Shown: positions 22,783 to 59,212, counted from the stretch's first letter. The stretch: 64,000 nt of DNA from Lachnospiraceae bacterium Phil5 (GCA_002633185.1 NWBM01000002.1:209640-273639); one strand, 5' to 3'. The notes: generated by a model from the sequence alone, not told the origin. Made by a program: numbers and translations.

Positions 22783-22932
22783 TTACTGGTCTTCATCACG
22801 ATCGTCATACGCTGCCTTATAATCAGCCGCTACTTCGTTTCCGCAGATAGGACATACAATGAAAGTAGCACCATCTGATGCTCTTCCACTAATTTCTTCT
22901 CCGCATGCAGGACAATTCATGTTGTATTCCAT
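22783..22932 (-). CDS. 49-aa zinc-ribbon protein (CPAC...CPIC)
   Basis: AGGAGGTA SD, ATG at 22932, two CxxC pairs and a hairpin downstream. Below the ORF-track cut-off. Confidence 0.5.
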   Translation of the reverse strand: MEYNMNCPACGEEISGRASDGATFIVCPICGNEVAADYKAAYDDRDEDQ

Positions 22933-23146
22933 AATAGAATACCTCCTTTTTAATGTTGCGCAAGCAGTAATACCACTTACATAGACCTAGTTAGTAGTAT
23001 AATATGGAAGAACCACAATACACTCTAACGCTTAATATGTTACTTAATGACTTTGTCATCTTATAACGTTAAATATTATATCACATATTTAAATTAATTG
23101 CAATATTACACATAATTGAACGAACAATAACAATATAAAAAAATTG

Positions 23147-23212
23147 CAAAAATAACGACGCACGAGAATCGATTTTAAGGCGTTTTTAAAAATTAGGCAT
23201 ATAGTTTGTTGT
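23147..23212 (-). repeat. inverted partial copy (box iii) of the island's AT-rich repeat, copy r1
   Basis: About 65 bp, near-identical to 24714-24778. Its reverse complement aligns with AAAACAACAA..TATATG.CT..TTTT.TAAAAA.G.CTTAAAA of copies c1-c5. Confidence 0.7.
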
Positions 23213-23340
23213 CTGCAAAAAGCTACCATTTATTGAAATATAAGCATTTTCAAGATTTTCAAAAAATTATATTTCAAGTTGAAAAAAATTTTTTAGTATG
23301 TTATTATTTTTTTGATATTATATAAAAAGGAGAAAATGTT

Positions 23341-24159
23341 ATGGGATTATTTAGTAAAAAGTATTGTTGCCTATGTGGCGAAAAAGTTGGATTATTAGGT
23401 GGACTAAAATTAAAAGATGGAGACCTATGTAAAGAATGTAAGAAAAAATTATCTCCATTTTTCGATGATGGAAAAGAATCAACAGTTGAAGATATAAAGA
23501 AACAAATTGCTGCTAGAGAAGAAAATTATAAACAATTAGATAATTTACAAATCAATAAAATATATGGAGAGTTTGGAGTTATATTAATTGATGAAACAAA
23601 TAAAAAGTTTGTTGCAGTAGCAGATACAAGTGATGGTTTGTTTAAATCTCCTAAAGTAGTTAAAAGCATTGAAGACATTAAAGATAAAAATCCTGATATA
23701 ATAGATTTCAAGGATATTGAAGATGTTGATATAAAAATAATTGAAACAACAAGAGAAGAAAAACAAACTATAGATGGACAGCAAGTTAGCTATGATCCAA
23801 AGCATTATACTTATATGATTGGTTTTGATGTAATTATTAAAGTAAATCATCCATATATTAAAACAATAAGAATAAGTCTAAAGAATGGAACTGTACAAAT
23901 TTATAATGAAGGAAGAAGATTAAAAGATGACTATGTAACTGGATTTATAAGAGATAGATTTGGAATAACAAGAGTTGAAGACAGAGCTGTTCACTACGAC
24001 AATTTAACAATACAAAATATTGTATCTAATGCTATGAAAGAAATGCCTGAATATTCATTTGGTTTTAAATGTACATTAAAGAATTATGACAGTATTAGAG
24101 AATATGCTTATTATTTAGCTTTATGTGATGATATAAAAACAACATTATTAAATAAATAA
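23341..24159 (+). CDS. DUF4428-like protein with N-terminal zinc ribbon
   Basis: N-terminus MGLFSKKYCCLCGEKVGLLGGLKLKDGDLCKECKKKLSPFF, which fits my recollection of the DUF4428 pattern. Good SD. Confidence 0.5.
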   Translation: MGLFSKKYCCLCGEKVGLLGGLKLKDGDLCKECKKKLSPFFDDGKESTVEDIKKQIAAREENYKQLDNLQINKIYGEFGVILIDETNKKFVAVADTSDGLFKSPKVVKSIEDIKDKNPDIIDFKDIEDVDIKIIETTREEKQTIDGQQVSYDPKHYTYMIGFDVIIKVNHPYIKTIRISLKNGTVQIYNEGRRLKDDYVTGFIRDRFGITRVEDRAVHYDNLTIQNIVSNAMKEMPEYSFGFKCTLKNYDSIREYAYYLALCDDIKTTLLNK

Positions 24160-24164
24160 TAATT

Positions 24165-24197
24165 TAAATTTCCACTTTTTATAGTGGAAATTTTTTT
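24165..24197 (+). terminator. intrinsic terminator
   Basis: AAATTTCCAC-loop-GTGGAAATTT hairpin followed by a T-run. Confidence 0.65.
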
Positions 24198-24199
24198 GT

Positions 24200-24640
24200 T
24201 TTTGTGCAAAGAAGCGGAAGAGTAGGGGAGGTAGAGGCATTTTGAAAGATAATAAAATAAATTTTAAATAATTTTAATAAATTGATTAAATAAAATTTTT
24301 TCAAAAAAGAAATAGGGAGAATAGACAGAATAAAATTTATACAAATAAAAAAATTTATAAAATAATTAAAATCAAAAAATTAATTTTAAAATTTAAAATT
24401 TAAAATTTTTACAAATTTATTTTTAAAATTTTTATGCGAACATTTGTGTTAAAAATATTTTTTTACAAAATTCTAAAATCTGATTTAAAAATTTTATTTT
24501 TGGATTTTTTTTAAATAAAATTTTATAGTATAAGTTTATAATTAAAATTATATTCAGACGTCTCAAAATCGTTTTTAAGACATTTATATTATTTAGACAT
24601 CAAATTATATATATAAATAATTTCGGATACTATTTTTTTA
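24200..24640. repeat. scrambled AT-rich repeat-derived segment
   Basis: Contains box i TTTTGTGCAAA (24200-24210), inverted box ii GTAGGGGAG (24222-24230) and an inverted box iii-like segment near 24573-24588. Confidence 0.4.
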
Positions 24641-24713
24641 AATAATTAAAACTGGTTATTTCTATGAAAAAAACTGATATAACTTGGGTTTCTAAGGAAC
24701 TCCTAAAAAGTGC

Positions 24714-24886
24714 CAAAATAACAACGCACGAGAATCGATTTTAAGGCGTTTTTAAAAATTAGACATATAGTTTGTTGTTATTAAGATAAACTTAATATAG
24801 CAAAAAGCGTGATATAGCAGTAATTATAAGGTATTAGTTGATATAGGCCTATATATAATTTTTGTCCTACCCCTATTTGCACAAAA
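24714..24886 (-). repeat. short inverted copy of the AT-rich repeat (r2)
   Basis: Inverted box iii at 24714-24778 and inverted box i TTGCACAAAA at 24877-24886, abutting copy c1 head-to-head. Confidence 0.6.
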
Positions 24887-24887
24887 C

Positions 24888-25255
24888 TTTCATTTTGTGC
24901 AATGTTATATTTCGGTTTTTGGTACCCTATATAGAGATAATTTTAAAAATTTTCCTACCTCTCTTCTATCACTTTTTAGCTTCTAACATGTAATTACCAA
25001 AATTAAATTTTATTCATTTTATATTTATTATTTTATTATTCTGATTATATTTTCTTTTCCAAACTCATTTTTTACTTTTTGAAAAATATTTTTATAAATT
25101 TAATTTTTATTTTTAATTTGTAAAAAATTAATCATTATACTAAAAATTACTATTTTTCTCCCCTACTTCTCAAATTCGTTAAAATTCAAGAAATTATAAA
25201 ACAACAAGTTTATATATCTTTTTTATAAAAATGTCTTAAAACTCATCCTTGTTCT
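24888..25255 (+). repeat. AT-rich cassette repeat, copy c1
   Basis: Boxes CTTTCATTTTGTGCAATGTT ... TTATACTAAAAATT.CTATTTT.CTCCCCTACTTCTCAAA ... AAAACAACAAGTTTATAT..CTTTTTTATAAAAATGTCTTAAAA. Confidence 0.8.
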
Positions 25256-25332
25256 TATTAAAATGTATTATAAATAATAAACAAGACTCTCAATTTTGGA
25301 TTGAAAGTCTTGTTTATTTGGTCAGTAATTTT

Positions 25333-25563
25333 TTACTTAATGATATACTTGGCAAGTTCTTTAGCTGCCTTTGCAGATTCCAGTTTGCCACGTTCAATGT
25401 TTCGACGCACGATTGGTAAGTTTCGCATATATTTTGCATTTACCATGCTGCGTATGGCTTTGGGTTTAGACTGCATTGGCTCATCTAAACAAGAATCCCA
25501 TACAAATTCTCTAGGTTCATCTAGACATGGATTCCGAACCATTTTTTGGGGCTTGTTGCTCAT
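25333..25563 (-). CDS. small basic protein (76 aa), third gene of cassette A
   Basis: GAGGTG SD before ATG 25563. No family recognised. Confidence 0.5.
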   Translation of the reverse strand: MSNKPQKMVRNPCLDEPREFVWDSCLDEPMQSKPKAIRSMVNAKYMRNLPIVRRNIERGKLESAKAAKELAKYIIK

Positions 25564-25573
25564 GTCAAACACC

Positions 25574-25759
25574 TCACTTAAATTTATGACGTTTGCTCCT
25601 CATTGTTACAGAACTATCTTGCTTTAACCTGTTAGCTTCATCAAGCTCTTTTTGCAGTCTTGGCAAAGCTCTTTTCTCTGAAGCAATCAGTTCGCCATAC
25701 CGAGGAACATGTACTGTAGCAATTGTAAAGCTGATTTTGGGCTTTTCACTAGTTTCCAT
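25574..25759 (-). CDS. 61-aa basic protein (METSEKPKI...YGELIASEKRALPRLQKEL), paralog of 28729-28914
   Basis: GGAAGG SD before ATG 25759. About 70 percent identical by eye to the cassette B copy. Confidence 0.6.
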   Translation of the reverse strand: METSEKPKISFTIATVHVPRYGELIASEKRALPRLQKELDEANRLKQDSSVTMRSKRHKFK

Positions 25760-25782
25760 AGAATTTACCTTCCATTCATATT

Positions 25783-25995
25783 TTAGCAACAACCATGGGT
25801 TTTAGCCCAAACTGATGCATCTGCATCGTTTTCACGTTGCTTTTTGCATTTTTCAGCTAGTTGTCTGTTCGTTTTTGCAATCTTTTCAGGATCAGCAGGA
25901 ACAACCTTTGCACGTTTTAGTGGAACTCCTGGACATAAATCACGCATTTTTCCATTAGGTAAGTGTATATACCTCTTTTGACGAATTATTTTCAT
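25783..25995 (-). CDS. 70-aa basic protein ending KTHGCC, paralog of 29137-29349
   Basis: GGAGGA SD. MKIIR.KRYIHLPNGKMR.LCPGV is conserved in both copies. Confidence 0.65.
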   Translation of the reverse strand: MKIIRQKRYIHLPNGKMRDLCPGVPLKRAKVVPADPEKIAKTNRQLAEKCKKQRENDADASVWAKTHGCC

Positions 25996-26179
25996 TTACG
26001 TTTCCTCCGAATTTAGGTTGTAAGCAAGTAAGCTGACCTTCTTACTAACTTATGGCTTTGTTAGTGCTGAACACGAATATATGCAAATTCTGCATTATTC
26101 CACTAACCTGGACTATATAAACAGGCTAAGTGCCTGGAATTTATGGATTTATATTATCATCTTTTATGTAAAATGTCAA
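25996..26179 (-). promoter_or_regulatory. island promoter plus conserved structured leader, copy A
   Basis: TTGACA (26174-26179), 17 bp, TAATAT (26151-26156), then a leader of about 150 nt shared with copies B, C and D. Confidence 0.7.
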
Positions 26180-26190
26180 TTTTTTAATTA

Positions 26191-27306
26191 TTATCTTTCT
26201 TCTTCTCGTTCACACAATTCTTTATTATAAACATCTCTTGCACTTTCATATGGTATAAAATTAAAATCAAAATAAGTGTAATACCCTCCTTTAGGTAAAC
26301 TTAAATATGTATTAATTTCATTATTTGCTTTTTCAGAAATTTCATTAATTCTAACTGTTCCATCTTCAGTTAATACTAATGGCACAACATATCTTGTTTT
26401 TGCCTTAACATTTACACAGTATTTATCTTGTATCTTGCTATTACTTTGATACACCGTATTAGCATTTTGGAATTTTTTGAAACTTTCTGATAAATAACTA
26501 TCTTCGCAATTCAAAAACTTATTAATTATTTCACTTTCAGATAAACTATATAAGTCATCAATGGTTAAATATCCCGCATTGTTCATAGATTTACACATAT
26601 CTGCTAAAAATTGCATAACTGTTCTATCTTTATCGCTTACCCATTCAGGCCATAGCTTTGATATAATACTAATATATTCTTCACATACTTCCTTATCTTT
26701 AAATACTAGTTCATCTATTCCATATTCATTTTTTGCAATTGTTATATTATTATATATCTTTCTTATTTTGTCTAATTCCCAAACTCTAAAGAATGTTAAT
26801 CCACTTGCAAATGTATATTCAAATCTATCTGCAGATAATTTTGGTGTATCATTATCTGCTATTGGATATTTTTTATAATCATCTACATCTTGTAATTTTA
26901 TACCATCTCTTTCAAGTAACCACATTATTCTTTTTGAATTTTTAATGATATCTGTTGTTCTTTCTTCAGTAGATTCTTGTGTTTCAGAGTCTCCATTCAT
27001 AAAGTCAATACAGTGTTTGAATACTGGTGTTGCAATATCGTGAAACAATCCTGCTAAAGTTTGTTTTTTATCATGCGTGAAATTCCATATAATAAGTGCA
27101 ACACCTACACTGTGATCTAAATTAGAATACCAGTATTTAACGTTGAAACATTTAGAATAATCTGTTCCACAACTCATACTAATTTTACCTATTCTTTCCA
27201 TTTCTGGAGTATTAATATATTCCAAGAGCCATTCTGGAAATTCTGGCGATAATATACTAAAATATTCTTTTACTTCGTCATTTAAATTATTATAATAGTT
27301 GTTCAT
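26191..27306 (-). CDS. HD-domain phosphohydrolase-family protein (371 aa)
   Basis: The HD signature GLFHDIATPVFKH and an upstream His in the N-terminal half. Own promoter TTGATA, 17 bp, TATAAT near 27340-27370. Confidence 0.7.
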   Translation of the reverse strand: MNNYYNNLNDEVKEYFSILSPEFPEWLLEYINTPEMERIGKISMSCGTDYSKCFNVKYWYSNLDHSVGVALIIWNFTHDKKQTLAGLFHDIATPVFKHCIDFMNGDSETQESTEERTTDIIKNSKRIMWLLERDGIKLQDVDDYKKYPIADNDTPKLSADRFEYTFASGLTFFRVWELDKIRKIYNNITIAKNEYGIDELVFKDKEVCEEYISIISKLWPEWVSDKDRTVMQFLADMCKSMNNAGYLTIDDLYSLSESEIINKFLNCEDSYLSESFKKFQNANTVYQSNSKIQDKYCVNVKAKTRYVVPLVLTEDGTVRINEISEKANNEINTYLSLPKGGYYTYFDFNFIPYESARDVYNKELCEREEER

Positions 27307-27424
27307 TTAAATTACCTCCATCTTTTTTGTATTATATCATAAATATTTTAATATATCAAGAAGCGGATTTAAATGCTGCATAAAAAAAATTTGACATATA
27401 ATATAATGGTGTTATAATAATATT

Positions 27425-27488
27425 AGCATTGTAATGTAACCGATTCATGCTGACAATTGATATGTGTGTGATGACACATATCTTTTTT
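27425..27488 (+). ncRNA. predicted small RNA 1 (module 1)
   Basis: TTGACA (27391-27396), 16 bp, TATAAT (27413-27418). Internal hairpin UAGCAU/AUGCUG and terminator GATATGTGT-loop-ACACATATC plus a T-run. The 5' half is conserved at 31824-31890. Confidence 0.5.
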
Positions 27489-27571
27489 ATATAAAAAAAA
27501 GGTAACAGAATATAAATGATGTATGAAAAATTTTATTTGACATATAATAAGAATGATGCTATAATAATTAT

Positions 27572-27647
27572 AGCTTAAGCAAATGTTGTTTTGTATAACC
27601 ATATAACAACACACTAGATATGTGAGGAGAACACATATCTTTTTTTT
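27572..27647 (+). ncRNA. predicted small RNA 2 (module 1), antisense to the neighbouring small-ORF initiation region
   Basis: TTGACA (27537-27542), 17 bp, TATAAT (27560-27565), and terminator GATATGTG-loop-CACATATC plus T8. 27592-27614 repeats 27780-27804 on the same strand, so it is complementary to the convergent mRNA. Confidence 0.55.
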
Positions 27648-27701
27648 GCTCAAAAAAAGAAACAGAGCAGGGAGAAACTGCTCTGAACTACTATGTAGTT
27701 T

Positions 27702-27800
27702 TTAGTTGTCATTGTTGTTCTGATACTTTTTCAATTCTTCATTTAATCTTGCGATTTCTTGAAGAAGAATCCATATCAATGTATAACCATTTATAACAAT
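27702..27800 (-). CDS. candidate small toxin-like peptide (module 1), start codon unclear (TTG 27779 or ATT 27800)
   Basis: Promoter TTGTAT (27870-27875), 17 bp, TATAAT (27847-27852); SD AAAGGGGG; terminator hairpin 27664-27686. ...GYTLIWILLQEI...NNNDN resembles the module 2 peptide. No canonical ATG in frame. Confidence 0.3.
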   Translation of the reverse strand: MVINGYTLIWILLQEIARLNEELKKYQNNNDN

Positions 27801-27950
27801 ACACCCCCTTTCTTTCAAGGGATTGTCCAAATACATGGACCTTTTAATTATATCGTAAAATCGACTCAAATACAATGACTATTCTGTGAGTTTTGTAATT
27901 TATTTTTCGACATATTTTTTATTAAATAGTAAAAATTTTGTTTCGATATT

Positions 27951-28432
27951 AAAGTGCGACATTTTTCGAAAAACGCATATTTTATTGATACATGTAAAAT
28001 ACATTGTTTGTTTATTTCAATACCGTTTTGGGATTTTTACACTCTTTAATTTTTCTAAACTTATATATAAAATTTACCTCATAGAAAATAGTCTTATTAC
28101 TTTCATTTTGTGCAATGTTTCATATCGGATTTTGATACCCTGTATCATGTAATTTACAAAATTTAATTTTATTCATTTTATATTTATTATTTAATATTTT
28201 ATTATATTTTCTAGGTTAGATTTTGTTTTCCAAACTTATTTTTACTTTTTTACTTTAAAAAATTATTTTATATAATTTCTTTTTATTTTTTAATTTATAA
28301 AAATTTAATCATTATACTAAAAATTGCTATTTTACTCCCCTACTTCTCAAACTCATTAAAATTTAAGAAATTATAAAACAACAAAGTTATATGTCTTTTT
28401 TATAAAAATCTCTTAAAATCCATCCTCGTTTC
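27951..28432 (+). repeat. AT-rich cassette repeat, copy c2 (with ~150-bp 5' extension shared with c5)
   Basis: Same three boxes. The extension AAAGTGCGACATTTTT...TTCTAAACTTATATATAAAATTTACCTCATAGAAAATAGTCTTATTAC is near-identical to 34239-34388. Confidence 0.8.
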
Positions 28433-28524
28433 TATAATATAGGAAACTATTTAACGTTTAACCATATAACAAAATAGAGTATTTACTGTAAAGTAAGTAC
28501 TCTATTTATAGGTCAGTTGTTAAA

Positions 28525-28719
28525 TTAGTCTGAATATGTTTCATCGGCAATTTTCATTGCTGTTTGTGATTCTGTTCGGTGTTGCTTAGCTGAACGTGAT
28601 ACTCTCTCGTTTATACGCTCTGCAGTTTGAACATCTAAGCTTTCAATTCTAATAGTTCTGCCTTTGCAAGATTTCTTTTTAAGAAGAGAGCCAGAGCTAT
28701 ATTTGTTTTTATCTTCCAT
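28525..28719 (-). CDS. 64-aa hypothetical protein (cassette B, last gene)
   Basis: AGGAGGGA SD. Unrelated to the cassette A third gene. Confidence 0.55.
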   Translation of the reverse strand: MEDKNKYSSGSLLKKKSCKGRTIRIESLDVQTAERINERVSRSAKQHRTESQTAMKIADETYSD

Positions 28720-28728
28720 ATGTCCCTC

Positions 28729-28914
28729 CTATTTCCTTTTACGATGTCGACTCATCATGGTTCTATGGCTTTCCACCTTTAACCGATTAGCGTCGTTAAG
28801 TTCTTTTTGCAATCTTGGTAAAGCTCTTTTTTCACTAGCAATAAGCTCACCATAACGATGACAAGGAATTACAGCTTTCATTGATTCAATCTTGGGTTTC
28901 TCACTAGTTTCCAT
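28729..28914 (-). CDS. 61-aa basic protein, paralog of 25574-25759
   Basis: GGAGGG SD and conserved YGELIASEKRALPRLQKEL. Confidence 0.6.
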   Translation of the reverse strand: METSEKPKIESMKAVIPCHRYGELIASEKRALPRLQKELNDANRLKVESHRTMMSRHRKRK

Positions 28915-28920
28915 CAGAAT

Positions 28921-29118
28921 TTACCCTCCATTAACAAAATGTTTGAATTGCTTTTTTACTGCCGCATTATTTGCTTCTGTCTGAATTGATATTTGGTTTT
29001 CAAGAAAATAAGCTGCTTTTGATGATATCTGTCCTTTAGGTGGTTCAATAATTTTTCTTGTGCTGCTGGATTGCAGAAGTTCTTTAGGTATAAACCGTTT
29101 TATATTAGAGTCTTTCAT
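28921..29118 (-). CDS. 65-aa hypothetical protein (present only in cassette B)
   Basis: AGGAGG SD. No family recognised. Confidence 0.5.
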   Translation of the reverse strand: MKDSNIKRFIPKELLQSSSTRKIIEPPKGQISSKAAYFLENQISIQTEANNAAVKKQFKHFVNGG

Positions 29119-29136
29119 ATAGATACCTCCTAAGCA

Positions 29137-29349
29137 TCAACAGCAACCATGAGTTTTAGTCCAAACTTTTGCTTCAGCATCATTCTCACGTTGCTTTTTG
29201 CATTTTTTAGCTAGTTTTTTGTTCGTTTTGGCTATCTTTTCAGGATCAGCAGGAATAACTTTTGCGCCTTTTATTAGAACTCCTGGACATAACTCCCGCA
29301 TTTTTCCATTAGGTAAGTGAATATACCTTTTGGGGCGTATAATTTTCAT
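29137..29349 (-). CDS. 70-aa basic protein ending KTHGCC, paralog of 25783-25995
   Basis: AGGAGG SD. More than 80 percent identical by eye to the cassette A copy. Confidence 0.65.
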   Translation of the reverse strand: MKIIRPKRYIHLPNGKMRELCPGVLIKGAKVIPADPEKIAKTNKKLAKKCKKQRENDAEAKVWTKTHGCC

Positions 29350-29536
29350 TAATGTATCCTCCTAATTTAAGGTTGTAAGCAAAGTAAGCTGACCTTCTTA
29401 CTTGCTATGGCTTTGTTAGTGCTGAACACGAATATCTGCAAATTCTGCATTATTCCACTAACGCTTACTATATGTAAACAGGCTGTTTGCCTGGAATTTA
29501 TGGGATTATATTATCATCTTTTATGTAAAAAGTCAA
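29350..29536 (-). promoter_or_regulatory. island promoter plus conserved structured leader, copy B
   Basis: TTGACT (29531-29536), 17 bp, TAATAT (29508-29513), then the conserved leader. Confidence 0.7.
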
Positions 29537-29630
29537 TTTTTCTATTGTGCTCTTACCAACAAGAATCTTTTGTATTTCGCTTTTTTGACTTTTATCGGAA
29601 TTTCCGACAAAAGATTAATGATTTTATTAA

Positions 29631-29670
29631 TAAAATAAAAAAGCCTAAAATTTTATATATTTCAGGCTTC
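29631..29670 (-). terminator. intrinsic terminator downstream of the Abi remnant
   Basis: AAGCCT-loop-AGGCTT hairpin with a T-run on the minus strand. Confidence 0.55.
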
Positions 29671-29673
29671 AGA

Positions 29674-29712
29674 ATGACTTAGAGCTTCTAGAGTTTTCTA
29701 AGTACCGTTCAT
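29674..29712 (-). repeat. structured direct repeat X1 flanking the Abi remnant
   Basis: ATGAACGGTAC-TTAG-AAAACTCTAGAAGCT-CTAA-GTCAT on the minus strand. The partner copy at 30360-30398 has compensatory stem changes. Confidence 0.55.
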
Positions 29713-29731
29713 TATTATTATATTCTAGTTT

Positions 29732-30321
29732 TTAATTATTATTCAAAGGAAAGCCCATTACAGATAAAATTGCATCTATTTTTATAGAATGTAAATTTTC
29801 TTTAAGTTTATCTATTTCATCATTTATAGAATTGCATAAATCTTTATATTGATCCTTTGTTAGTAGCTTTTCCATACATCTAATTACCATATATAAGTTA
29901 GTTATATTATCTGATTTTTCATAGTCCTTATCAATAAGTTTAAATGAAAGATAAAATTTACTAGTATAACTATATAATCTATCAGAGTGGGCTGCAATAT
30001 TTCTTACAGTAGATAAGTTTTTTAGTATTTGTTTTAATAACTTATCTGATATTCTAAAATACTTTGCAACTGCTTGTCTATCACTTTGCTTTAAAAGTCC
30101 ATAATAACTACTTGCTACTCCAAATGTAAGAACCTTTGTTAGAACAAATGGTGGTACAAATCCATATTTGTTTATGTAATGTGTTACTGCAGTATGAGTA
30201 TTATAATCCTTTTCGATTTCTGCATTTATTTTATTAAGCAAATTTTCTTTTATATTATTATTCTTACGCCTTTTGACTCCAAATAATCTATTAATTCTTC
30301 GTTAGTTCTATATTCTTTCAT
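29732..30321 (-). pseudogene. Abi_2 (AbiD/AbiF-like) abortive-infection gene remnant
   Basis: The 169-aa ORF carries FG....YY and VRNIAAHSDRLY, typical of Abi_2. A 23-aa N-terminal piece (MKEYRTNEELIDYLESKGVRIII, 30250-30321) lies in another frame, and the expected ~100 aa between the two pieces is missing. Confidence 0.6.
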
Positions 30322-30359
30322 TAAATAGTTAAACTCTCCTTGCTTTTATAGTAAAAAAA

Positions 30360-30398
30360 ATGACCCAAGGCTTCGAAAGTTTCTTGGATACCGCTCAT
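30360..30398 (-). repeat. structured direct repeat X2
   Basis: ATGAGCGGTAT-CCAAG-AAACTTTCGAAGC-CTTGG-GTCAT followed by T8, with a promoter-like TTGCTA, 17 bp, TATTAT just upstream. Confidence 0.55.
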
Positions 30399-30470
30399 AT
30401 ATATAATAGCATATTTTAAAGTAATTAGCAAGTACCTTTTATGAAAATGTTATGATTTTTGGAAACAATA

Positions 30471-30748
30471 CTTTCATTTTGTGCAATGTTATATTTCTCT
30501 TTTTGAGATGCTCCATTTCTAAATTTATATCCCTTCTCCATCATTCTTATATATAAATTTATTAAATTCTTTAAATGTTTTTTTAATTTAATTTTCATTT
30601 ATTAATTATTTTTGCTTCTCAAAATATTTTTCTCTTCAACTTAGTTTCTAATATAAAAAATTATTTTTGTAAATTTTAATTTTAAAATTTATATTAATTT
30701 AGTAATTTTAAAAAATCAACTTTTTACTCCCCTACTTCCTGAATCGCT
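30471..30748 (+). repeat. AT-rich cassette repeat, copy c3 (divergent, lacks box iii)
   Basis: CTTTCATTTTGTGCAATGTTATATTTC ... TTTTTACTCCCCTACTTCCTGAA. Confidence 0.7.
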
Positions 30749-30820
30749 AATATTTATTCATACTAAATAACGCAAAACGGAGTCTTATCCTCTAAGACTC
30801 CGTTTTGCGGCTGAAATAAA

Positions 30821-30874
30821 TTAACCGCCTGCTTCCTTATCAGCCACAATACCAGCATAAGCAATACCAGACAT
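30821..30874 (-). CDS. 17-aa ORF (MSGIAYAGIVADKEAGG) in a mini-cassette
   Basis: GAGAGGAAG SD, a perfect upstream promoter and a 16-bp-stem hairpin downstream (30772-30808). Coding status is unproven. Confidence 0.3.
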   Translation of the reverse strand: MSGIAYAGIVADKEAGG

Positions 30875-30976
30875 ATTGACTTCCTCTCAATCGTTAATTC
30901 TTTACAGCAAGTGTCTGAACACGAGCTTTTAAGCTCACACTACGATAATTATATAGCATAATATGTTCAATGTCAA
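30875..30976 (-). promoter_or_regulatory. consensus promoter plus short leader related to the island leader
   Basis: TTGACA (30971-30976), 17 bp, TATAAT (30948-30953). The leader shares CGTGTTCAG.CAC with leaders A-C. Confidence 0.5.
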
Positions 30977-30989
30977 ATAAGGACTTTTT

Positions 30990-31050
30990 TATTACATTCA
31001 TTATACTAAAAATTGCTATTTTATTCCCCTACTTCTTAAGTTTAGTGATA
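30990..31050 (+). repeat. AT-rich repeat fragment (box ii only), c3b
   Basis: CATTATACTAAAAATTGCTATTTTATTCCCCTACTTCTTAAG. Confidence 0.7.
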
Positions 31051-31112
31051 TTTTTTATAACAAATAAGAGTTTTCGGTTCAGTACGAAAACTCTTATAAA
31101 TATTTGATAATT

Positions 31113-31604
31113 CTACTTATCCCATGAACCAACAACAAAATATGGCACACCATCTATATTCCTATAGTAAACTCTGAAACCATAGGGCTCGCGAGATAAA
31201 ACCTGGACAATACCGACAATAACAATTTGAAACAAATCGTTTATCACTCTGATATCTGAGCCACAATATCCTTCGTGTGCAGTCAACAGTTCATCGAGAT
31301 TTTTTCCCCGAATTCCATTCTTGTCATCAGAAAACTTTGCTTCAAGCTTCTCAATAAGTTCTGTATCATCTTTATAACTGCTTGGAAACTTAATACTTGA
31401 GAACCGACCGTCGGCATCTTTGTCAAAAACTTCATCAAAAATATCTGCAAGTTTGAACTTACGCTCATTTCCTAAAAATCTTTCAGTTACCGGCAGATTT
31501 GCTTTTTCGAAGTGCTTAAGCACGATCTCAAGAAATGCCACTTTTTCAACAGAGCACCCTACATTATAAAGCAAGTAATCGGCTTTGAATATGCGATTAT
31601 ACAT
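31113..31604 (-). CDS. 163-aa hypothetical protein (cassette C cargo)
   Basis: GGAGGA SD and terminator hairpin at about 31055-31085. No family recognised. Confidence 0.6.
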   Translation of the reverse strand: MYNRIFKADYLLYNVGCSVEKVAFLEIVLKHFEKANLPVTERFLGNERKFKLADIFDEVFDKDADGRFSSIKFPSSYKDDTELIEKLEAKFSDDKNGIRGKNLDELLTAHEGYCGSDIRVINDLFQIVIVGIVQVLSREPYGFRVYYRNIDGVPYFVVGSWDK

Positions 31605-31779
31605 ATTTTTTCCTCCAATTATGGTTAGGCAAGTTTTTTTCTTAACTTGTATGGGCTTTGTTAGTGCTGAACACGAATATGCAAATTCTGCATTATTCCA
31701 CTAACGCTTACTATATGTAAACAGGCTGTTTGCCTGGAATTTATGGATTTATATTATCATCTTTTATGTAAAATGTCAA
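31605..31779 (-). promoter_or_regulatory. island promoter plus conserved structured leader, copy C
   Basis: TTGACA (31774-31779), 17 bp, TAATAT (31751-31756). Back-to-back with the sRNA1 promoter at 31790. Confidence 0.7.
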
Positions 31780-31823
31780 TTTATATGATTTGACATATAA
31801 TTAAATGGTGTTATAATAATATT

Positions 31824-31890
31824 AGCATTGTAGTGTAACCGATTTATAGTAATGCTTGATATGTGTGTGATGACACATATCTCTTTTTTT
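31824..31890 (+). ncRNA. predicted small RNA 1 (module 2)
   Basis: TTGACA (31790-31795), 16 bp, TATAAT (31812-31817). Same 5' sequence ATTAGCATTGTA.TGTAACCGATT and the same terminator stem as module 1. Confidence 0.5.
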
Positions 31891-31969
31891 ATAAAAATAT
31901 TAGATACACATAAATAAGGTATGAAAAATTTTATTTGACATATAATAAGAATGATGCTATAATAATTAT

Positions 31970-32037
31970 AGCTTAAGCAAATCATAGGATGTCACAAGAT
32001 TTGCATCGAGATATGTTCGTCGCATATCTCTTTTTTT
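31970..32037 (+). ncRNA. predicted small RNA 2 (module 2), antisense to the neighbouring small-ORF initiation region
   Basis: TTGACA (31935-31940), 17 bp, TATAAT (31958-31963), and terminator GAGATATG-loop-CATATCTC plus a T-run. 31982-32005 matches 32159-32182 at 19 of 24 positions on the same strand. Confidence 0.55.
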
Positions 32038-32082
32038 ATTTTAATTCAAAAGAAAAAGGCGGTCGTCGTCCGCCTTCAAAGA

Positions 32083-32172
32083 TTATTCTTTGTTTGTGCC
32101 TTGGTTTTCATTATCATTATTACTTAAAAGCAATAAGACAATTAATCGCCAGATTAGCTCATAGGATGTCAT
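32083..32172 (-). CDS. 29-aa hydrophobic peptide MTSYELIWRLIVLLLLSNNDNENQGTNKE, type I toxin candidate (Fst-like architecture)
   Basis: Promoter TTGTAT (32247-32252), 17 bp, TATAAT (32224-32229); SD GGGAGGTG; ATG 32172; terminator AAGGCGG-loop-CCGCCTT (32057-32077). Convergent with sRNA2. Confidence 0.45.
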   Translation of the reverse strand: MTSYELIWRLIVLLLLSNNDNENQGTNKE

Positions 32173-32358
32173 TCCTTTTGCACCTCCCTTCTGCAGGGAT
32201 TGTCCAAATACATGGACCTTTTAATTATATCGTAAAATTGACTCAAATACAATGACTATTCTGTGAATTTTGTAATTTGTTTTTCTAATAATATGTCGAA
32301 AAATGACATTTCGATAACTATTTTCAGCTTGTTATTTTTGTATTATAAAATGTCCGAT

Positions 32359-32725
32359 TTCTTTCATTTTGTGCAATGTTATGTTTCGGATTTTGGTATA
32401 CTCTATATCGATAAATTTAGAAATTTTTGTACCCCCTTCTATAGTTATTATATATTTATATATGATTATTAAAAATTATTTTTTATTACTATTTATATTT
32501 ATTGTTTTATTTTTTCTAATTATATTTTCTGTTTTAGATTTTCTTTTCCATAATTATTTTTAATTTTAAAAATTATTTTATAAATTTTATTTTTGTTTTT
32601 AAAAATTTATTCATTATACTAAAAATTCTTATTTTTCTCCCCTACCTCTTAAATTCATTAAAATTTAAGAAATTATAAAACAACAAGTTATATGTCTTTT
32701 TTATAAAAATGCATTAAAATGCATT
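32359..32725 (+). repeat. AT-rich cassette repeat, copy c4
   Basis: All three boxes are present. The ORF-track ORFs here are not frame-conserved between copies. Confidence 0.8.
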
Positions 32726-32770
32726 TCCATAAGTTTGTCAATAAGAAAAATATATTAATATGTAGTTTCA

Positions 32771-33088
32771 TTAAAATACTTCATACGTCGGATATTTTAA
32801 CAGTAAACTTTCATCATTTAAGTCAATTTTTTTATTATATAATAATTTGTAAAAATAGTCTTTTGAGATTAATTGTTTATATACTATATCTATTTTTTCT
32901 TCATTTATTTCTAACGCCTTCAAAAGCTGATAGGCTCTTTTTTGAGTAATCTTAAAAAAAAGAGCTTCATCTTTTAACATATTTCTTATTTCAAGATTTA
33001 TAGTGCAATCTACTCCATTATTAGTTTTAAAATCAATATTTGTTTCATTCATAATATTAATACATTCAAAAATATTTACATCATCCAT
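32771..33088 (-). CDS. 105-aa hypothetical protein, translationally coupled to the upstream gene
   Basis: AAGGAG SD before ATG 33088. The ATGGATGA overlap spans the stop of 33081-34112. Confidence 0.55.
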   Translation of the reverse strand: MDDVNIFECINIMNETNIDFKTNNGVDCTINLEIRNMLKDEALFFKITQKRAYQLLKALEINEEKIDIVYKQLISKDYFYKLLYNKKIDLNDESLLLKYPTYEVF

Positions 33089-34112
33089 AATAAACAATCT
33101 CCTTTGCAATTTCGCTTCTATTTTTATTTGGTAAATACAGTCCATCTTGAATATTATCAAAAAACTTTCTTGAACTAATTAATTCTACACCTAATGAATT
33201 TATTATTATGTAATTCATATTCCAAGCTATATATAAAGTTTGAATATATTTATCGCCAACTTTTAGCCAAATCTTTTTAGGTTCATAACCTTTAAGTTCA
33301 AGTATAGGCTTTATATATTTAAATACTCCATCATTACCAGCATTCTTTGTTTTGCTTAGCAAAATATTCATCCACTCATATTCACCATTTTTTTCAAAAT
33401 CTTCCATAATTTCTTTTTCAAACTCTTTTTTAGGCTTTCTATTTAAATTGAATTTATCAACTGCTTTCTTAACAATGTCTTTTTCATCATTAACAATTGT
33501 AATTCCTTTTATTTCTAATCCTAATTTTGCTCTATTTAAATCTTCACCTTTTACAAAATCATCACAATCAATAGTAATCATGAAATCGTCACATATAATA
33601 CCTGTAGCATAATGAGACTCATATTCATCAGATACCAAAAAAATATCGCATTCTTCATTCGTTAATTGTTTCATTCTAAAAGCAAAATATCTAGATAATT
33701 CAAAACATATTCTCCTATTATGTTTTTTTCTCTCTTCTATCCATCTGCTATTGGGATTTCTTCCATATTTTTGGTCAATAGTGCATATATTTTTCTCTCT
33801 ATCATATTTTCCTAAAAAATAACAAAATTCATCAAAAACAAAATGTTCACATACCATACAATGAACTATTAAGATTTTTTCAATTAAGCTTAGTTGATCC
33901 AAACCTTCGATTTCATGTATTTTATCTACAATTGAATCATCTTCTGTTTTCCAAGCCACATAATCATATTGTATTCTTGAATCACCTATTTCTTCTTGAT
34001 CTTCAGGATCAACTTTTATTTTACACCAGTTCATATGATTTGTAATTCTTTTTAATGCCTCTAGAAATTCTTTTCTCTTTTCTTCTTTGTTCATTAGTTT
34101 TTTATCCTCCAT
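33081..34112 (-). CDS. ~340-aa hypothetical protein, weak transglutaminase-like Cys-His-Asp pattern (start probably ATG 34094)
   Basis: RRICFELSRYF ... SHYATGI ... ITIDCD spacing recalls transglutaminase-fold cysteine proteases. This is inference only. Confidence 0.55.
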   Translation of the reverse strand: MEDKKLMNKEEKRKEFLEALKRITNHMNWCKIKVDPEDQEEIGDSRIQYDYVAWKTEDDSIVDKIHEIEGLDQLSLIEKILIVHCMVCEHFVFDEFCYFLGKYDREKNICTIDQKYGRNPNSRWIEERKKHNRRICFELSRYFAFRMKQLTNEECDIFLVSDEYESHYATGIICDDFMITIDCDDFVKGEDLNRAKLGLEIKGITIVNDEKDIVKKAVDKFNLNRKPKKEFEKEIMEDFEKNGEYEWMNILLSKTKNAGNDGVFKYIKPILELKGYEPKKIWLKVGDKYIQTLYIAWNMNYIIINSLGVELISSRKFFDNIQDGLYLPNKNRSEIAKEIVYYG

Positions 34113-34238
34113 ACAATAACTTTTATTTTAATTATATTCTAAATTAAAATAAAAAAAATGGCAATATAGCTTTTAAGTATTTTTACAATAATTTCTTCGT
34201 AACAAATTATAAGTGAGCAGTATTATAATAGTCATATT

Positions 34239-34760
34239 AAACTGCGACATTTTTGCAAATTGCATGTTTTATTCATACAGGTGAAAATGTCCTACGTGCT
34301 TATTTCAATACTATTTTGAGATTTTTACATTTCTTAAATTTTCTAAACTTATATATAAAATTTACCTCATAGAAAATAGTCTTATTACTTTCATTTTGTG
34401 CAATGTTGTATTTCGGTTTTTGGTATGCTCTGTATTGATTAATTTTAAAATTTTTGTACCTCTCTTCTATCTTTATTATATATTTATATGTAATTGTTAT
34501 AAATTATCTTTTATCTAAATTTATATTTATTGTTTTGATTTTTCTAATTACATTTTCTATATTAGATTTTCTTTTCTAAACTTATTTTTATTATTTAAAT
34601 ATTATTTTATAAATTTTATTTTTAATTTATAAAAAATAATCATTATACTAAAAATTGCTATTTTACTCCCCTATTTCTCAAATCCATTAGAATTAAAGAA
34701 ATTATAAAACAATACAAACATATATGCTTTTTCTGTATAAAAGTCTTAAATTGATTTAAA
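34239..34760 (+). repeat. AT-rich cassette repeat, copy c5 (with 5' extension shared with c2)
   Basis: All boxes plus the extension. Confidence 0.8.
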
Positions 34761-34873
34761 AGATGATGAACTTGGATTTAGTAACAATAAAAAAGACAGA
34801 ACAAAAAATATTTCACTCTGTCTTTTTTCAATTATTCAGTTTCTTAGAATTTTTAATTGTATGAAAATATTTC

Positions 34874-35554
34874 CTATATTTTAGTAACACTTGAAGAAAT
34901 CATTATATCAGTTTCTAACATATTAATGGTAAAACGCACTTCATAATCTTCTTCATAATCTTCCCTTGTGGTACTCACCACACAGCATTCATCACAAACC
35001 TCTATACCATTAATAATACAATTATCCGTATCAATGTCAACATAAGTATAGTGTTCACAATCGTTAGTTGCTAAAATATACTTCTCTGTATAGAAGATTA
35101 AAAGCCCTTCACTTGAGAGAACAAGCTTCGGTTTTTTCAGCAACATTTTGAATATATTGTAGTTAGAAATTATATTGTGTCTTCCGATGTTGTCTGTGAT
35201 GTAAGCTACAGTAGTTGGTCCTACAAATTCAAATGGCATTTCTCTTTTCTTAATTGAAAAACGTTTTCCTTCGCAGACAGTTGATATAGTAATATTTTGG
35301 ATAAATCCATTAAGTCTGCAAGGAGATTCCAGCCCTGAATCTGAATTGCAACAATATACAACAATCGGGTATTCGCTGCAATACTGATAAATGTCATTAC
35401 CATCTACCAAAACTAATGAGTTTTCCTCAAACTGCTCCCATTCTTTCTCTGAAACAATACTTTCAGCACACATGGTAACTTGAGAATTTTCAATATACAC
35501 GTCTTCAGAGAACTCAATTACTCGTTCTACAATTGGAAATTTTTTCTTTTCCAT
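34874..35554 (-). CDS. 226-aa Cys-rich hypothetical protein (cassette E cargo)
   Basis: GGAGGGA SD and terminator hairpin at about 34790-34830. No family recognised. Confidence 0.6.
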   Translation of the reverse strand: MEKKKFPIVERVIEFSEDVYIENSQVTMCAESIVSEKEWEQFEENSLVLVDGNDIYQYCSEYPIVVYCCNSDSGLESPCRLNGFIQNITISTVCEGKRFSIKKREMPFEFVGPTTVAYITDNIGRHNIISNYNIFKMLLKKPKLVLSSEGLLIFYTEKYILATNDCEHYTYVDIDTDNCIINGIEVCDECCVVSTTREDYEEDYEVRFTINMLETDIMISSSVTKI

Positions 35555-35755
35555 ACCATCCCTCCAAATTATTGGTTAGCAAGTGTAATTGTTATTTACA
35601 ACTTGCATGGGCTTTGTTAGTATGCTGAACTCACACTAACTCTTACTTATATATCACTTGTTCTGAAACGCGGACTATCCAGTTCAACAAGTGAACCACA
35701 GGCATTTGCCTGGAATTTATGGATTTATACTACCACAGTTTTATGCAAATGTCAA
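35555..35755 (-). promoter_or_regulatory. island promoter plus conserved structured leader, copy D (variant with an extra hairpin)
   Basis: TTGACA (35750-35755), 17 bp, TAGTAT (35727-35732). Shares the 5' AAATCCATAAATTCCAGGCAAATGCCTG and GTTAGTG..ACTAACAAAGCCCAT segments. Confidence 0.65.
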
Positions 35756-35767
35756 ATAAATATTAAA

Positions 35768-36373
35768 TTAGTCATCTATTACATTTATTATTTGTTCTTT
35801 TGAAATAGGACCTTCTCTTAATATTTTAAGTTCATCCAAACTGCAATCGACTATTGTACTACTTTTACCAAAAACAACATTTCCATCCATCATTCCGTTA
35901 ATCATTGGACAAGCCTTTTCTATTTCATCTAAATTTGTACATGTTGGTTCTCCGCTTCTGTTAGCACTTGTCATAAACACTGGGCTTTCTGTCTTTCTAA
36001 TTAAATCCTCTAGTGCTTTTGAAGTTGCCATTCTAACCGCAATAGTATCTTTTCCATTACTTACATAACTAGGTAATTTACTATTCTTTTTTAATATAAG
36101 TGTTATTGGTCCTGGCATAAAAGCATGTATTAACTTCTCTGCATTTTTATTAACTATTGCAATGCTTCTTATTTGTTCTTCATCAGCACACATAATTGGA
36201 AAAGATTTTATTTTAGGGCGATTCTTTACTTCCATTAATCTATCATGTGCTTTCTTTGAACTTATTCTTGCACATATACCATAAACAGTATCTGTTGGAA
36301 CGCTAATTACGCCATCATTTTTTAATATATTAGCTAAATCATCAGTTTTATTTTGTTTATATCTTTCTATCAT
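35768..36373 (-). CDS. tsaC: L-threonylcarbamoyladenylate synthase (YrdC/Sua5 family)
   Basis: 201 aa with PTDTVYG, K.RP and SAN.SG motifs of the YrdC domain. Confidence 0.85.
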   Translation of the reverse strand: MIERYKQNKTDDLANILKNDGVISVPTDTVYGICARISSKKAHDRLMEVKNRPKIKSFPIMCADEEQIRSIAIVNKNAEKLIHAFMPGPITLILKKNSKLPSYVSNGKDTIAVRMATSKALEDLIRKTESPVFMTSANRSGEPTCTNLDEIEKACPMINGMMDGNVVFGKSSTIVDCSLDELKILREGPISKEQIINVIDD

Positions 36374-36489
36374 TTTTAACTTCCTTTTTGATTCTCTATC
36401 ATATCAAGCATTCTTATATGATATTAATCCTATTATTTTATCATTATCTTCGTATAATAATATTTTACCATTACATTTTTTTATTTCAG

Positions 36490-36633
36490 TTATGGTTTTT
36501 CAAAATATTTTTCTTTATAATCTTCTCCTACTATGTTATATCCTTCTTTGTCTATATCAGTTAAATATTGTTGTAATTCTTCTAATAAATATTTTATTTG
36601 ATTATCATATTTTGGATTATACTCAATTATCAT
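36490..36633 (-). pseudogene. possible remnant of a small acetyltransferase-like gene (47-aa ORF plus out-of-frame continuation)
   Basis: SD GAAAGGA before ATG 36633. The frame stops at 36490 and a second frame continues ...CNGKILLYEDNDKIIGLISYKNA. Weak evidence. Confidence 0.25.
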
Positions 36634-36695
36634 ACTTTATCCTTTCATTTTATTTTTTTCTAATTATTTTTCCATATTTCATTTATATGACCCGT

Positions 36696-38042
36696 TTATT
36701 TGAATCTTTTCAAATATGTATCAAATTTATCTAAAAACTCATCATTAGTTTTTGTTTGAACCATTTGACTTAATAATTCTTCTGTTACATCTGCAACTGG
36801 TAAGCTATTTAATGCTTTTCTTAATGCAGATACAGTTTCTAATTCTTTTGGAGTTTGTAATAAATCTTCTCTTCTTGTACCAGATTTGTTAATGTCTATT
36901 GCAGGGAATATTCTCTTTTCAGATAGTTTTCTATCTAATACAACTTCCATATTTCCAGTACCTTTGAATTCTTCAAATATAACTTCATCCATTCTGCTTC
37001 CTGTTTCAACTAATGCTGTTGCAAGTATTGTTAGGCTTCCACCATTTTCAATATTTCTAGCTGCACCAAAGAATTTTTTAGGTTTATGTAGTGCTGCAGG
37101 ATCAAATCCTCCAGATAATGTTCTTCCTGATGAAGGTATAACTAAGTTGTAAGCACGAGCAAGTCTTGTAATACTATCTAATAAAATTACAACATCTTTC
37201 TTTTGCTCTGTTAATCTTTTTGCTCTTTCTAATACCATTTCAGCAACTTTAACATGGTGTTCTGGTAATTCGTCAAATGTTGAATATATTACATCTCCTT
37301 TAATTGAGCGAATCATGTCGGTTACTTCTTCTGGTCTTTCATCTATTAATAATACTATTAATTCTACTTCTGGATTATTAGCCGAAATGCTGTTCGCTAT
37401 TTTCTTTAATAAAGTTGTTTTACCAACTTTTGGTGGAGCAACAATCATACCTCTTTGTCCTTTTCCTATTGGAGAAACTAAATCCATTAATCTTGTTGCA
37501 TATTCTGTTGGTTTTGTTTCCAAGCGTAGTCTTTCATTTGCATATATTGGTGTTAAATCATCAAATTTAATTCTTCTATAGGCTTTTTCTGGTGCTTCAC
37601 CATTTACTTCTCCTACAAATATTAGCGCTGGGAATTTTTCTCCTTCTTTTGGTGTACGAGCTATACCTTTAATTTTGTCTCCTTTGTCTAGTCTGAATCT
37701 TTTAATTTGAACTGGTGAGATATATACGTCTTTTGGGCTTGATAGATAATTCTTTCCTCTTAAAAATCCATATCCATCTGGTAATACCTCTAAAATTCCC
37801 TCCACTATAACATCATCTTCATTTGTAATTTTATATGTACCGTTTGATTGAAGATCGTTTGTCTCGAAATCTTCAGTTTCCTTTTTTGTATTTTTTGTTT
37901 CTTCTGCCGCATTTTCTATAGTATTTTCTTCATTACTTAATAATTCTATTAATTCATCTTTCTTTAATTTTGATACATTTTTAGCACCCTTTTCCTTTGC
38001 TAATTGACGCAATTCTACTAATGTGAAATTTTCATAATCCAT
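36696..38042 (-). CDS. rho: transcription termination factor Rho
   Basis: N-terminal [15 protein letters not shown]-binding [14 protein letters not shown], and P-loop [18 protein letters not shown]. Confidence 0.96.
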
Positions 38043-59200: not shown

Positions 59201-59212
59201 TTCTTGATATAT

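Follow-up and report, generated by a model that had tools for sequence, protein, structure and literature searches.

Why should unrelated genes that lie within 10 kb of one another be preceded by the same promoter and the same structured leader, and what might such a leader do? This question is raised by a stretch of 64,000 nucleotides from Lachnospiraceae bacterium Phil5 (GCA_002633185.1 NWBM01000002.1:209640-273639; the window, with positions counted from its first letter). A preliminary description, made from the sequence alone, had reported four to five copies of an unclassified promoter plus leader between positions 25996 and 35755. It had suggested a cis-regulatory RNA that coordinates the genetic island around them. 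Here we analyzed these copies together with their relatives in other genomes. Our results point to a structured-leader family in which one hairpin, P2, presents an unpaired GUUCAG motif, and this element may tentatively be read as a post-transcriptional operator.

Five copies of a promoter and leader

The sequence from 25800 to 36000 was read, and the reverse complements of the copies were aligned. All five copies were located at the positions first proposed, and all of them are read on the minus strand. Four are full copies (A, 25996-26179; B, 29350-29536; C, 31605-31779; D, 35555-35755) and one is a minimal relative (E, 30875-30976), which puts five copies inside 10 kb of the window. Each copy consists of a near-consensus sigma-A (sigma-70-type) promoter and a hairpin-rich 5' untranslated region (UTR) that runs up to the Shine-Dalgarno (SD) sequence and the start codon. 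The promoters of the four full copies are of the kind described before. They read TTGACA-17-TAATAT with a TG extension in copy A (26179-26151, spacer with TTTACATAAAA), TTGACT-17-TAATAT in copy B (29536-29508), TTGACA-17-TAATAT in copy C (31779-31751) and TTGACA-17-TAGTAT in copy D (35755-35727, spacer with TTTGCATAAAA), the last lying directly after the stop codon of Sua5. The promoter of copy E is TTGACA-17-TATAAT (30976-30948).

The common 5' end of the leaders is CCAUAAAUUCC. The 19-mer GTTCAGCACTAACAAAGCC occurs three times, against 0.03 expected, and CGTGTTCAG occurs exactly four times in the 64 kb, all within copies A, B, C and E. These counts place the repeat far above chance.

The 17-nt promoter spacer of every full copy contains TTT(A/G)CATAAAA (26162-26172, 29519-29529, 31762-31772 and 35739-35749), and a second CATAAA follows 21-22 bp downstream, at the transcript start. 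Among related contigs and loci elsewhere, which are labelled L with a number, the spacer motif is retained in the distant relatives L129, L158 and L181 and inverted in L186. It is also found outside promoters, at 5733 and 17932 of the window. The motif may serve as an operator at the DNA level, distinct from the element in the RNA. No LexA/Cheo box was seen in the leader promoter sequence.

The leader RNA forms a series of covarying hairpins

The start of the leader was taken as about 7 nt after the -10 box, and its end as the base before the start codon. The RNA features listed in the preliminary description (the 5' end, P1, P2, GUUCAG, AAAGCC, a variable P3 and an anti-SD helix) were all present. 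The hairpins stand in series as P1, P1b (in copy D only), P2 (with an inner hairpin in copies A, B and C), P3 and P4. P4 is a short helix in which an anti-SD pairs with the 5' half of the SD.

In copy A (leader 25996-26144), P1 is CAGGC-ACUUA-GCCUG (26122-26136). P2 (26060-26107) pairs GUUAGUG with CACUAAC around the inner hairpin P2b/c and carries the 3' bulge GUGUUCAG at 26067-26074. It is followed by AAAGCC (26054-26059), the P3 hairpin (26021-26052, loop AAGGUCAG) and P4 (26004-26017), where the anti-SD CCU faces AGG/GGAGG of the SD. Copy B (29350-29501) is built of P1 (CAGGC-AAACA-GCCUG, 29479-29493), P2 with P2b/c (29415-29462) and the same bulge (29422-29429), AAAGCC (29409-29414), P3 (GCAAGUAAG/CUUACUUUGC, 29379-29405) and P4 with the SD (CCU...AGGAGG, 29358-29372). 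The corresponding elements of copy C (31605-31744) are P1 at 31722-31736, P2 at 31660-31705 with the bulge at 31667-31674, AAAGCC at 31654-31659, P3 at 31630-31649 and P4/SD at 31612-31624. Copy D (35555-35720) has P1 at 35699-35712 and an extra 41-nt hairpin, P1b, at 35654-35694. Its P2 (35616-35640) is a 9-bp hairpin with a short apex and the loop AGUUCAG (35625-35631), and AAAGCC (35610-35615), P3 (35579-35606) and P4/SD (35561-35575) follow. The P1 loops across the copies are ACUUA, AAACA and AAAU. In the minimal leader of copy E (30875-30941), the core (30910-30941) is a helix AGUGU/ACACU around the hairpin GAGCU-UAAA-AGCUC, with the bulge GUGUUCAG at 30915-30922, and the SD GAGAGGAAG lies in a hairpin loop.

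A covariance model built on 17 A-type copies gave 178.5, 187.6 and 131.3 bits for copies A, B and C, and just 29.6 bits for copy D. Copy E scored 12 bits with the full model, and its core architecture (helix, inner hairpin and bulge) is common to the other copies. The fold z-scores of copies A to D were -2.5, -3.2, -3.5 and -3.8. Independent minimum-free-energy folds of A, B, C, D, L129 and the second copy of L124 gave the same hairpin order, with z from -2.5 to -5.1.

The preliminary description had held that pairing is kept while the sequence changes, and the larger alignment bore this out. When 32 distinct copies were aligned with the covariance model, 96% of the cells were paired. In this alignment 13 pairs had changed on both sides, compared with 2.1 ± 1.2 in shuffles (0/500) and 1-4 in slid-partner controls. 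The compensatory variants of P1 are CAGGC/GCCUG, CAAGC/GCUUG, CAAAGG/CCUUUG, UAGC/GCUA and CAUAUUC/GAAUAUG. Those of P2 are GUUAGUG/CACUAAC, GUUAGUA/UACUAAC, GUUAGGGUG/CAUCCUAAC, AUUAGUGUAG/CUGUACUAAU, UUAAAUA/UAUUUAA and AGUGU/ACACU, and those of P4 are CCU/AGG, CCAA/UUGG, CUUU/AAAG and CCUAAA/UUUAGG. Pairing was higher on the sense than on the antisense strand (918 versus 891 of 955 cells, with 32 G-U cells). The gene-sense strand is thus favoured, because G-U pairs raise the pairing of the sense strand. Pairing of the 5'-end UUCC with the SD, or of AAGG in the P3 loop with the anti-SD, was not kept across copies.

A conserved, structured 5' UTR with a helix that occludes the SD would suit a small-molecule riboswitch, one of the functions first suggested. 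The fold, however, is a row of serial hairpins, several of them optional, with no multi-helix junction or supported pseudoknot. The genes downstream encode unrelated small proteins with no metabolic or transport theme, and no Rfam match was obtained. Since both a multi-helix junction and a coherent gene set are missing, we regard a riboswitch as very improbable. A transcription attenuator or RAT-type target was rejected, because the stretch from P2 to the start codon contains no terminator; the sole match of a loose terminator scan in the leaders was P1 of copy A, a 5-bp hairpin trailed by U-rich sequence. A leader peptide was rejected as well. The ATG in P2c opens 16-27 codons in copies A and B; in copy C and L149 the frame is interrupted, and copy D and the second copy of L124 lack the ATG.

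The leader had not been matched to any named class, and the Rfam 15 scans gave the same outcome. The gathering-score scan of the window returned RNase P only. No match at the leaders was obtained at E<=5 over 22000-37000, or at E<=1 over L129, L181, L186 and L124. The 200 supplement files covered, out of 408, of a human-microbiome structured-RNA catalogue (PMC8040213) also gave no match. The promoter consensus, the covarying structure, its strand and its distribution show a real structured-leader family, absent from Rfam, for which the support by covariation is moderate.

Relatives elsewhere keep one unpaired motif

About 40 related copies were collected from metagenome-assembled genomes (MAGs) of Clostridia and from metagenomes. 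When one genome per species was scanned with a pattern, four true relatives came to light, all in uncultured Clostridia (a Hadza gut MAG, UMGS1995, a roe-deer rumen MAG and a goat ileum MAG), and a pattern scan of metagenomes found about 27 further copies. The covariance model then detected diverged extra copies at the same loci (L123 4453-4597, L124 5540-5695 and L157 621-746). Contigs reached through homologues of F1, the protein encoded directly behind copies A and B, provided more copies and the diverged one at L176 605-744. No match to copy C was found by blastn in phage and plasmid collections. Scans of IMG/VR with three specific patterns found no true copy, and a bare 14-mer gave chance matches alone.

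Across the variants, the unpaired G(U/G)UCAG is constant while all of the surrounding helices change. It is found in three settings: in an 8-nt 3' bulge between P2 and the inner hairpin (A-type copies and E), in a 7-nt hairpin loop (D, L129 and L181), and within a 10-nt loop (L186). ACAAA(G/A)CC usually comes next. The copies obtained through protein homologues, which are independent of the fishing pattern, also keep the motif. P1, P1b, P2b and P3 are dispensable or replaceable, and P3 is absent from the second copy of L157 and from L181.

The dimensions of P2 bear on a processing signal. Here a host ribonuclease would cut the asymmetric internal loop of P2, after which P3 would protect the downstream message as a hairpin at its 5' end. 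A parallel is found in phages T7 and SP82, whose early genes are separated by RNase III sites. P2, P2b and P2c of the A-type together form about 16 bp with the 8-nt 3' bulge, P3 follows directly, and the element occurs in many copies before unrelated genes as well as between genes of one operon. Against such a signal, the helices of D-type copies (9 bp) and of E (5+5 bp) appear too short for a classical RNase III substrate, and the P3 that should remain is missing from the two relatives named above. Cleavage of this kind therefore seems rather unlikely.

Homologues of the 226-aa protein encoded behind copy D, although only 42-52% identical to it, are still preceded by diverged D-type leaders at other loci. 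The leader of L181 lies between rplS and dapB, and that of L186 adjoins a gene for a KAP NTPase. The D-type leaders at L181 and L186 indicate that the leader family is older and wider than the island. That the leader coordinates the island, as was proposed, stays an interpretation, and one that meets a family which also occurs outside such islands, as at L181.

Downstream genes and mosaic leaders

All of the downstream genes are also on the minus strand. Operon A (25333-25995) encodes F1 (25783-25995), F2 (25574-25792) and F5 (25333-25572) and ends at a terminator at 25276-25318. Operon B (28525-29349) encodes F1, F3, F2 and F4 (70, 65, 61 and 64 aa), with a terminator at 28472-28507. Copy C precedes the gene of a 163-aa protein with no family match (31113-31604, terminator 31064-31097). 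Copy D precedes the gene of a 226-aa Cys-rich protein whose function is unassigned (34874-35554, terminator-like site 34789-34828). Copy E is followed by an open reading frame (ORF) of 17 codons (30821-30874, MSGIAYAGIVADKEAGG) and a strong terminator with a 17-bp stem (30771-30809).

The first genes had been called non-homologous. This holds for three types in the window and for at least 10 unrelated first-gene families behind the leader across genomes, but not for copies A and B. These two are paralogous past the leader (repeat D3, 86% identical over 229 nt), and their F1 proteins are 83% identical. As they share F1, only three unrelated first genes (70-aa F1, 163-aa and 226-aa) stand behind the four full copies. 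No function was assigned to any downstream family by Pfam, NCBIfam or PHROG. F1 to F5 are five families of small charged proteins (61-79 aa) that form the commonest cargo, in shuffled order behind the leader, and they had no match in the same three collections. F1 and F3 are fused in L153 (F-gene region L153 864-2429). The ends of F1 are conserved (MKIIR..YIHLPNGK ... WAKTHGCC) and its middle is variable. Its predicted structure is a beta-hairpin plus one long helix (pLDDT 75), without a significant fold match.

The layout of these operons allows processive antitermination of the put, nut or EAR kind to be considered, in which the nascent leader would let RNA polymerase pass downstream terminators. 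Promoter-proximal hairpins in many copies, an integrase-linked element, unrelated operons behind the leader and further cassette genes behind the terminator of every operon are consistent with it. The operons are short, however, and terminator-like sites were called only at their ends, none inside on the coding strand. The genes behind the terminators have promoters of their own (27359-27331, for example). The leader abuts the SD and pairs with it, and a copy internal to an operon lies on a scale of 3 nt from the start site. There is also no resemblance to conAn2 and no Rfam match. On balance, we consider antitermination quite improbable.

The conservation of the leader was compared with that of its cargo. 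Promoter and leader are 86-94% identical in nucleotides where the F1 gene is 69-80% identical (52-61% in amino acids). Variation is uneven along the leader: it is high in the P1 loop, J1/2, J2/3, P3 and the SD-ATG spacer, and nil in P2, partly through ascertainment. Mosaic breakpoints are found at several places (after P3, after the SD and 5' of P2).

These data bear on a constitutive module, which would join a strong promoter to a 5' structure that stabilises the message and to a tuned ribosome-binding site, without any signal, its uniformity coming from copying and homologous recombination. The near-consensus promoter, the weak P4, the breakpoints inside the leader and the near-identical copies within a genome and between close genomes all fit it. 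What speaks against it is G(U/G)UCAG, which stays fixed amid fully replaced helices even where the downstream protein is only 42-52% identical, because a stability element needs no such unpaired motif. The very uneven variation and a UTR more conserved than the coding sequence also argue against it. A constitutive module is thus unlikely, though the most probable of the alternatives.

One copy separates the parts of the leader. At L176 605-744, between F3 and F2 within an operon, the element has neither promoter nor P1. The 5' strand of P2 contains the stop codon of F3, and the junction falls exactly at the 5' edge of P2. The P2-P3-P4 part is therefore tied to the downstream start site and not to the promoter. 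Of all the observations, this internal copy points most strongly to an action of P2-P3-P4 at the RNA level on the following gene.

A possible post-transcriptional operator

Taken together, three features are consistent with an operator: hairpins in series, of which one covarying helix carries a sequence-specific loop or bulge; an anti-SD helix that also covaries; and a position before many unrelated genes. We infer that P2 with GUUCAG may be a post-transcriptional operator for one trans-acting factor, with translation or messenger RNA (mRNA) stability as the output, and we put this forward as our leading explanation at somewhat less than even confidence. The leader would be a portable expression module, in which a near-consensus sigma-A promoter and a structured 5' UTR of 70-170 nt are co-transcribed with the gene. 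The P2 helix that presents G(U/G)UCAG would be the operator, and the factor would most likely be an RNA-binding protein of the host or of the island family. Once occupied, the operator would alter ribosome access at P4/SD or alter mRNA stability, and many unrelated cassette genes could be switched together after transcription. Of the cis-regulatory RNA first proposed, the structured family on the gene-sense strand is supported; a riboswitch is unlikely, and a role as target of the island's own small RNAs (sRNAs) has no support.

Several points weigh against the operator. The alignment behind the 13 covarying pairs had been fitted to the model, and only three pairs covary on a MAFFT alignment of the A-type copies alone. 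Most copies are close relatives, and the covariation comes from about 8-10 independent lineages; given the three pairs among close A-type copies, the signal is carried by these diverged lineages. The pattern used to fish for homologues lay in P2-3'/AAAGCC, so the invariance of that part is partly built in. Mosaic junctions fall within the leader, as between copy B and L134/L144, whose 96% identity runs from the upstream AbiD gene over the promoter to the end of P3, with no relation beyond it. Recombination between copies could explain part of the high conservation. P4 has only 3-6 bp and could merely tune translation without switching it. Finally, no candidate binding protein emerged. F1 found no support for this part, since its model had no informative fold match, its uS8-like sequence match was weak (E = 0.05) and F genes are missing from the L144 island, although the leader is there. 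Island sRNAs likewise found no support as regulators of the leader: their complementarity to it stayed within shuffles (z > -1.6), and the positive control, sRNA2 with the toxin ribosome-binding region, gave z -2.4.

Ranked by likelihood, the alternatives run from the constitutive expression module through the RNase signal, antitermination and a DNA site to the riboswitch. If P2/GUUCAG is a real operator, it would define a control circuit of a new kind, between RNA and protein or between two RNAs, in uncultured Clostridia of the gut and rumen, a clade that has been little studied. Mobile cassettes would then bring their own shared post-transcriptional switch, whereas integron cassettes depend on one platform promoter, and cassette arrays, toxin or defence genes and RNA-level co-regulation would be tied together in a testable way. 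In practical terms, the leader offers a compact, strong and portable expression module for low-GC anaerobes.

The island and its cassette array

The island covers about 24.2-35.76 kb, with Sua5/Rho on one side and a Xer-like tyrosine recombinase on the other. The recombinase (21661-22636, minus strand) consists of two overlapping ORFs of 231 aa and 129 aa, which suggests a frameshift. Its homologue is intact in L153 (329 aa) and fragmented in L144. An IntI-type integrase was rejected, as the recombinase reached 97 bits against a TIGR02249 cut-off of 265; its best matches are XerC/XerD models, below their cut-offs too. Just upstream of it, a 49-aa four-cysteine zinc-ribbon ORF was found (22787-22936, minus strand), over whose start lies a weak ylbH-leader-like Rfam match (19 bits, E = 2.6), probably by chance. 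A class A bacterial RNase P RNA (59211-59560, minus strand, 274.8 bits) in the window indicates a chromosomal context.

The island contains an AbiD remnant, an HD-domain protein, a DUF4428 protein, two type I toxin-like modules with tandem small RNAs, and genes of unknown kind. The truncated AbiD/Abi_2 gene (29732-30300, minus strand, 169 aa) matches only the C-terminal half of the models; in L144 the N-terminal part is a separate ORF. In each of the type I toxin-antitoxin-like modules (27389-27875 and 31788-32285), a small ORF on the minus strand (...IVINGYTLIWILLQEIARLNEELKKYQNNNDN) is served by a promoter and a terminator of its own. Two sRNAs lie in tandem on the plus strand; their promoters match the consensus perfectly, and they too have terminators. 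The second of these sRNAs complements the ribosome-binding region of that ORF (duplex of -33.9 kcal/mol, z -2.4).

Operons A, B and D end in a terminator, and an R unit of about 380 nt, very rich in AT, comes next; what follows operons C and E is a short R2 core together with a diverged R unit. Most related loci with enough downstream sequence show this layout too. The R units (approximately 24886-25258, 28099-28435, 30470-30744, 32360-32737 and 34387-34766, minus strand) have end blocks at 24877-24903, 28100-28116, 30471-30487, 32361-32377 and 34388-34404 (minus strand). Every unit closes with the invariant ...AACATTGCACAAAAT(G/C)AAAG, and the sequence beyond falls into about seven degenerate types. 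The block nearest the recombinase is completed to a perfect 10-6-10 palindrome, TTGCACAAAA-TGAAAG-TTTTGTGCAA, as in about 10 other loci, and synteny with L148 ends exactly at the palindrome point. Related islands beside a homologous recombinase (L144 and L153) hold other cassettes. As a lead from sequence, the R-unit block is a candidate core site, and cassettes may have accreted by site-specific recombination, integron-like or in tandem.

The right-arm sequence TTTTGTGCAAA is present in opposite orientations at two places about 680 bp apart, 24863-24886 and 24196-24210 (plus-strand positions), the latter just past the DUF4428 gene (23341-24159, plus strand). The pair flanks a very AT-rich segment, perhaps a cassette in inverted position or a segment able to invert. 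A repeat of 80 nt was also seen at about 23138-23230 and 24715-24800.

With such an array present, the hairpins could in principle act in DNA that is folded as a single strand or a cruciform, and serve for recombination as attC does, as an origin like sso or as a single-strand promoter like Frpo. Pairing that outlasts sequence, as in attC, a Xer-like recombinase beside a cassette array and the one junction exactly at the P2 5' edge would agree with this. Yet the breakpoints lie at several places instead of a single crossover point, and a far better candidate site exists at the cassette 3' ends. The promoter hexamers are in ordinary duplex, the element always terminates at the SD, and there is no Rep gene. 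L129 and L181 carry the leader without a recombinase or R unit in the DNA fetched (about 8 kb and 9.6 kb). A DNA-level element is accordingly quite improbable, slightly more so than antitermination. A Frpo-type single-strand promoter or sso origin was rejected, since the promoter lies outside the hairpin and a Rep gene is missing.

Returning to the operator, we also considered a wider and more speculative idea, which we think unlikely. The leader might be the common expression and control module of an undescribed integron-like platform in Firmicutes, where a Xer-like recombinase would add cassettes at the 10-6-10 core. Cassettes would accrete at the palindrome, each keeping an AT-rich, attP-arm-like R unit and one half-site, and one RNA-binding signal, made for example on phage infection, would switch a changing set of defence and toxin cassettes. 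To our knowledge, integrons have not been reported in Firmicutes. The cassette array would be notable if recombination is confirmed, and it raises the ceiling of the finding.

Comparison with known systems

The leader resembles HK022 put and the lambdoid nut sites (boxA/boxB), which are short promoter-proximal hairpins, recognised through a loop or bulge, present in several copies per mobile element and placed before unrelated operons. Those sites stop termination over long operons through RNA polymerase, whereas the operons here are short with no terminator to pass. The leader also pairs with the SD and may sit between genes, and it has no sequence or Rfam similarity to them. Like conAn2/EAR, it is a leader RNA of a Firmicutes mobile element. 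conAn2 is 260-600 nt long, follows and needs conAn1, and is marked by a GC-rich box and by terminal inverted repeats of 20 bp (PMC8191782). Identity with conAn2 was rejected, since its length, its conAn1 partner, the GC-rich box and the terminal repeats are all absent here.

Like attC of integrons, the leader recurs in a recombinase-linked cassette array and conserves pairing above sequence. attC, in contrast, lies at the 3' ends of cassettes, has no promoter or SD and is the partner of IntI, and the element here is a 5' promoter-leader. The RNase III signals of T7 and SP82 likewise recur as irregular hairpins whose internal loop is asymmetric, and they too stand ahead of unrelated genes or between them; the helices of copies D and E, in contrast, appear too short for such a signal.

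The translational operators form the last group. In the Mu Com/mom leader, the phage Orf1/lactococcal abiD1 leader, the Aca2/acr leader and the leaders of ribosomal proteins, a hairpin recognised by a protein upstream of a sequestered SD switches translation, and several of them serve phage-defence or anti-defence genes. The island here also appears defence-related, with its AbiD remnant and type I toxin modules. These operators each serve a single gene, whereas one leader type here serves many unrelated genes.

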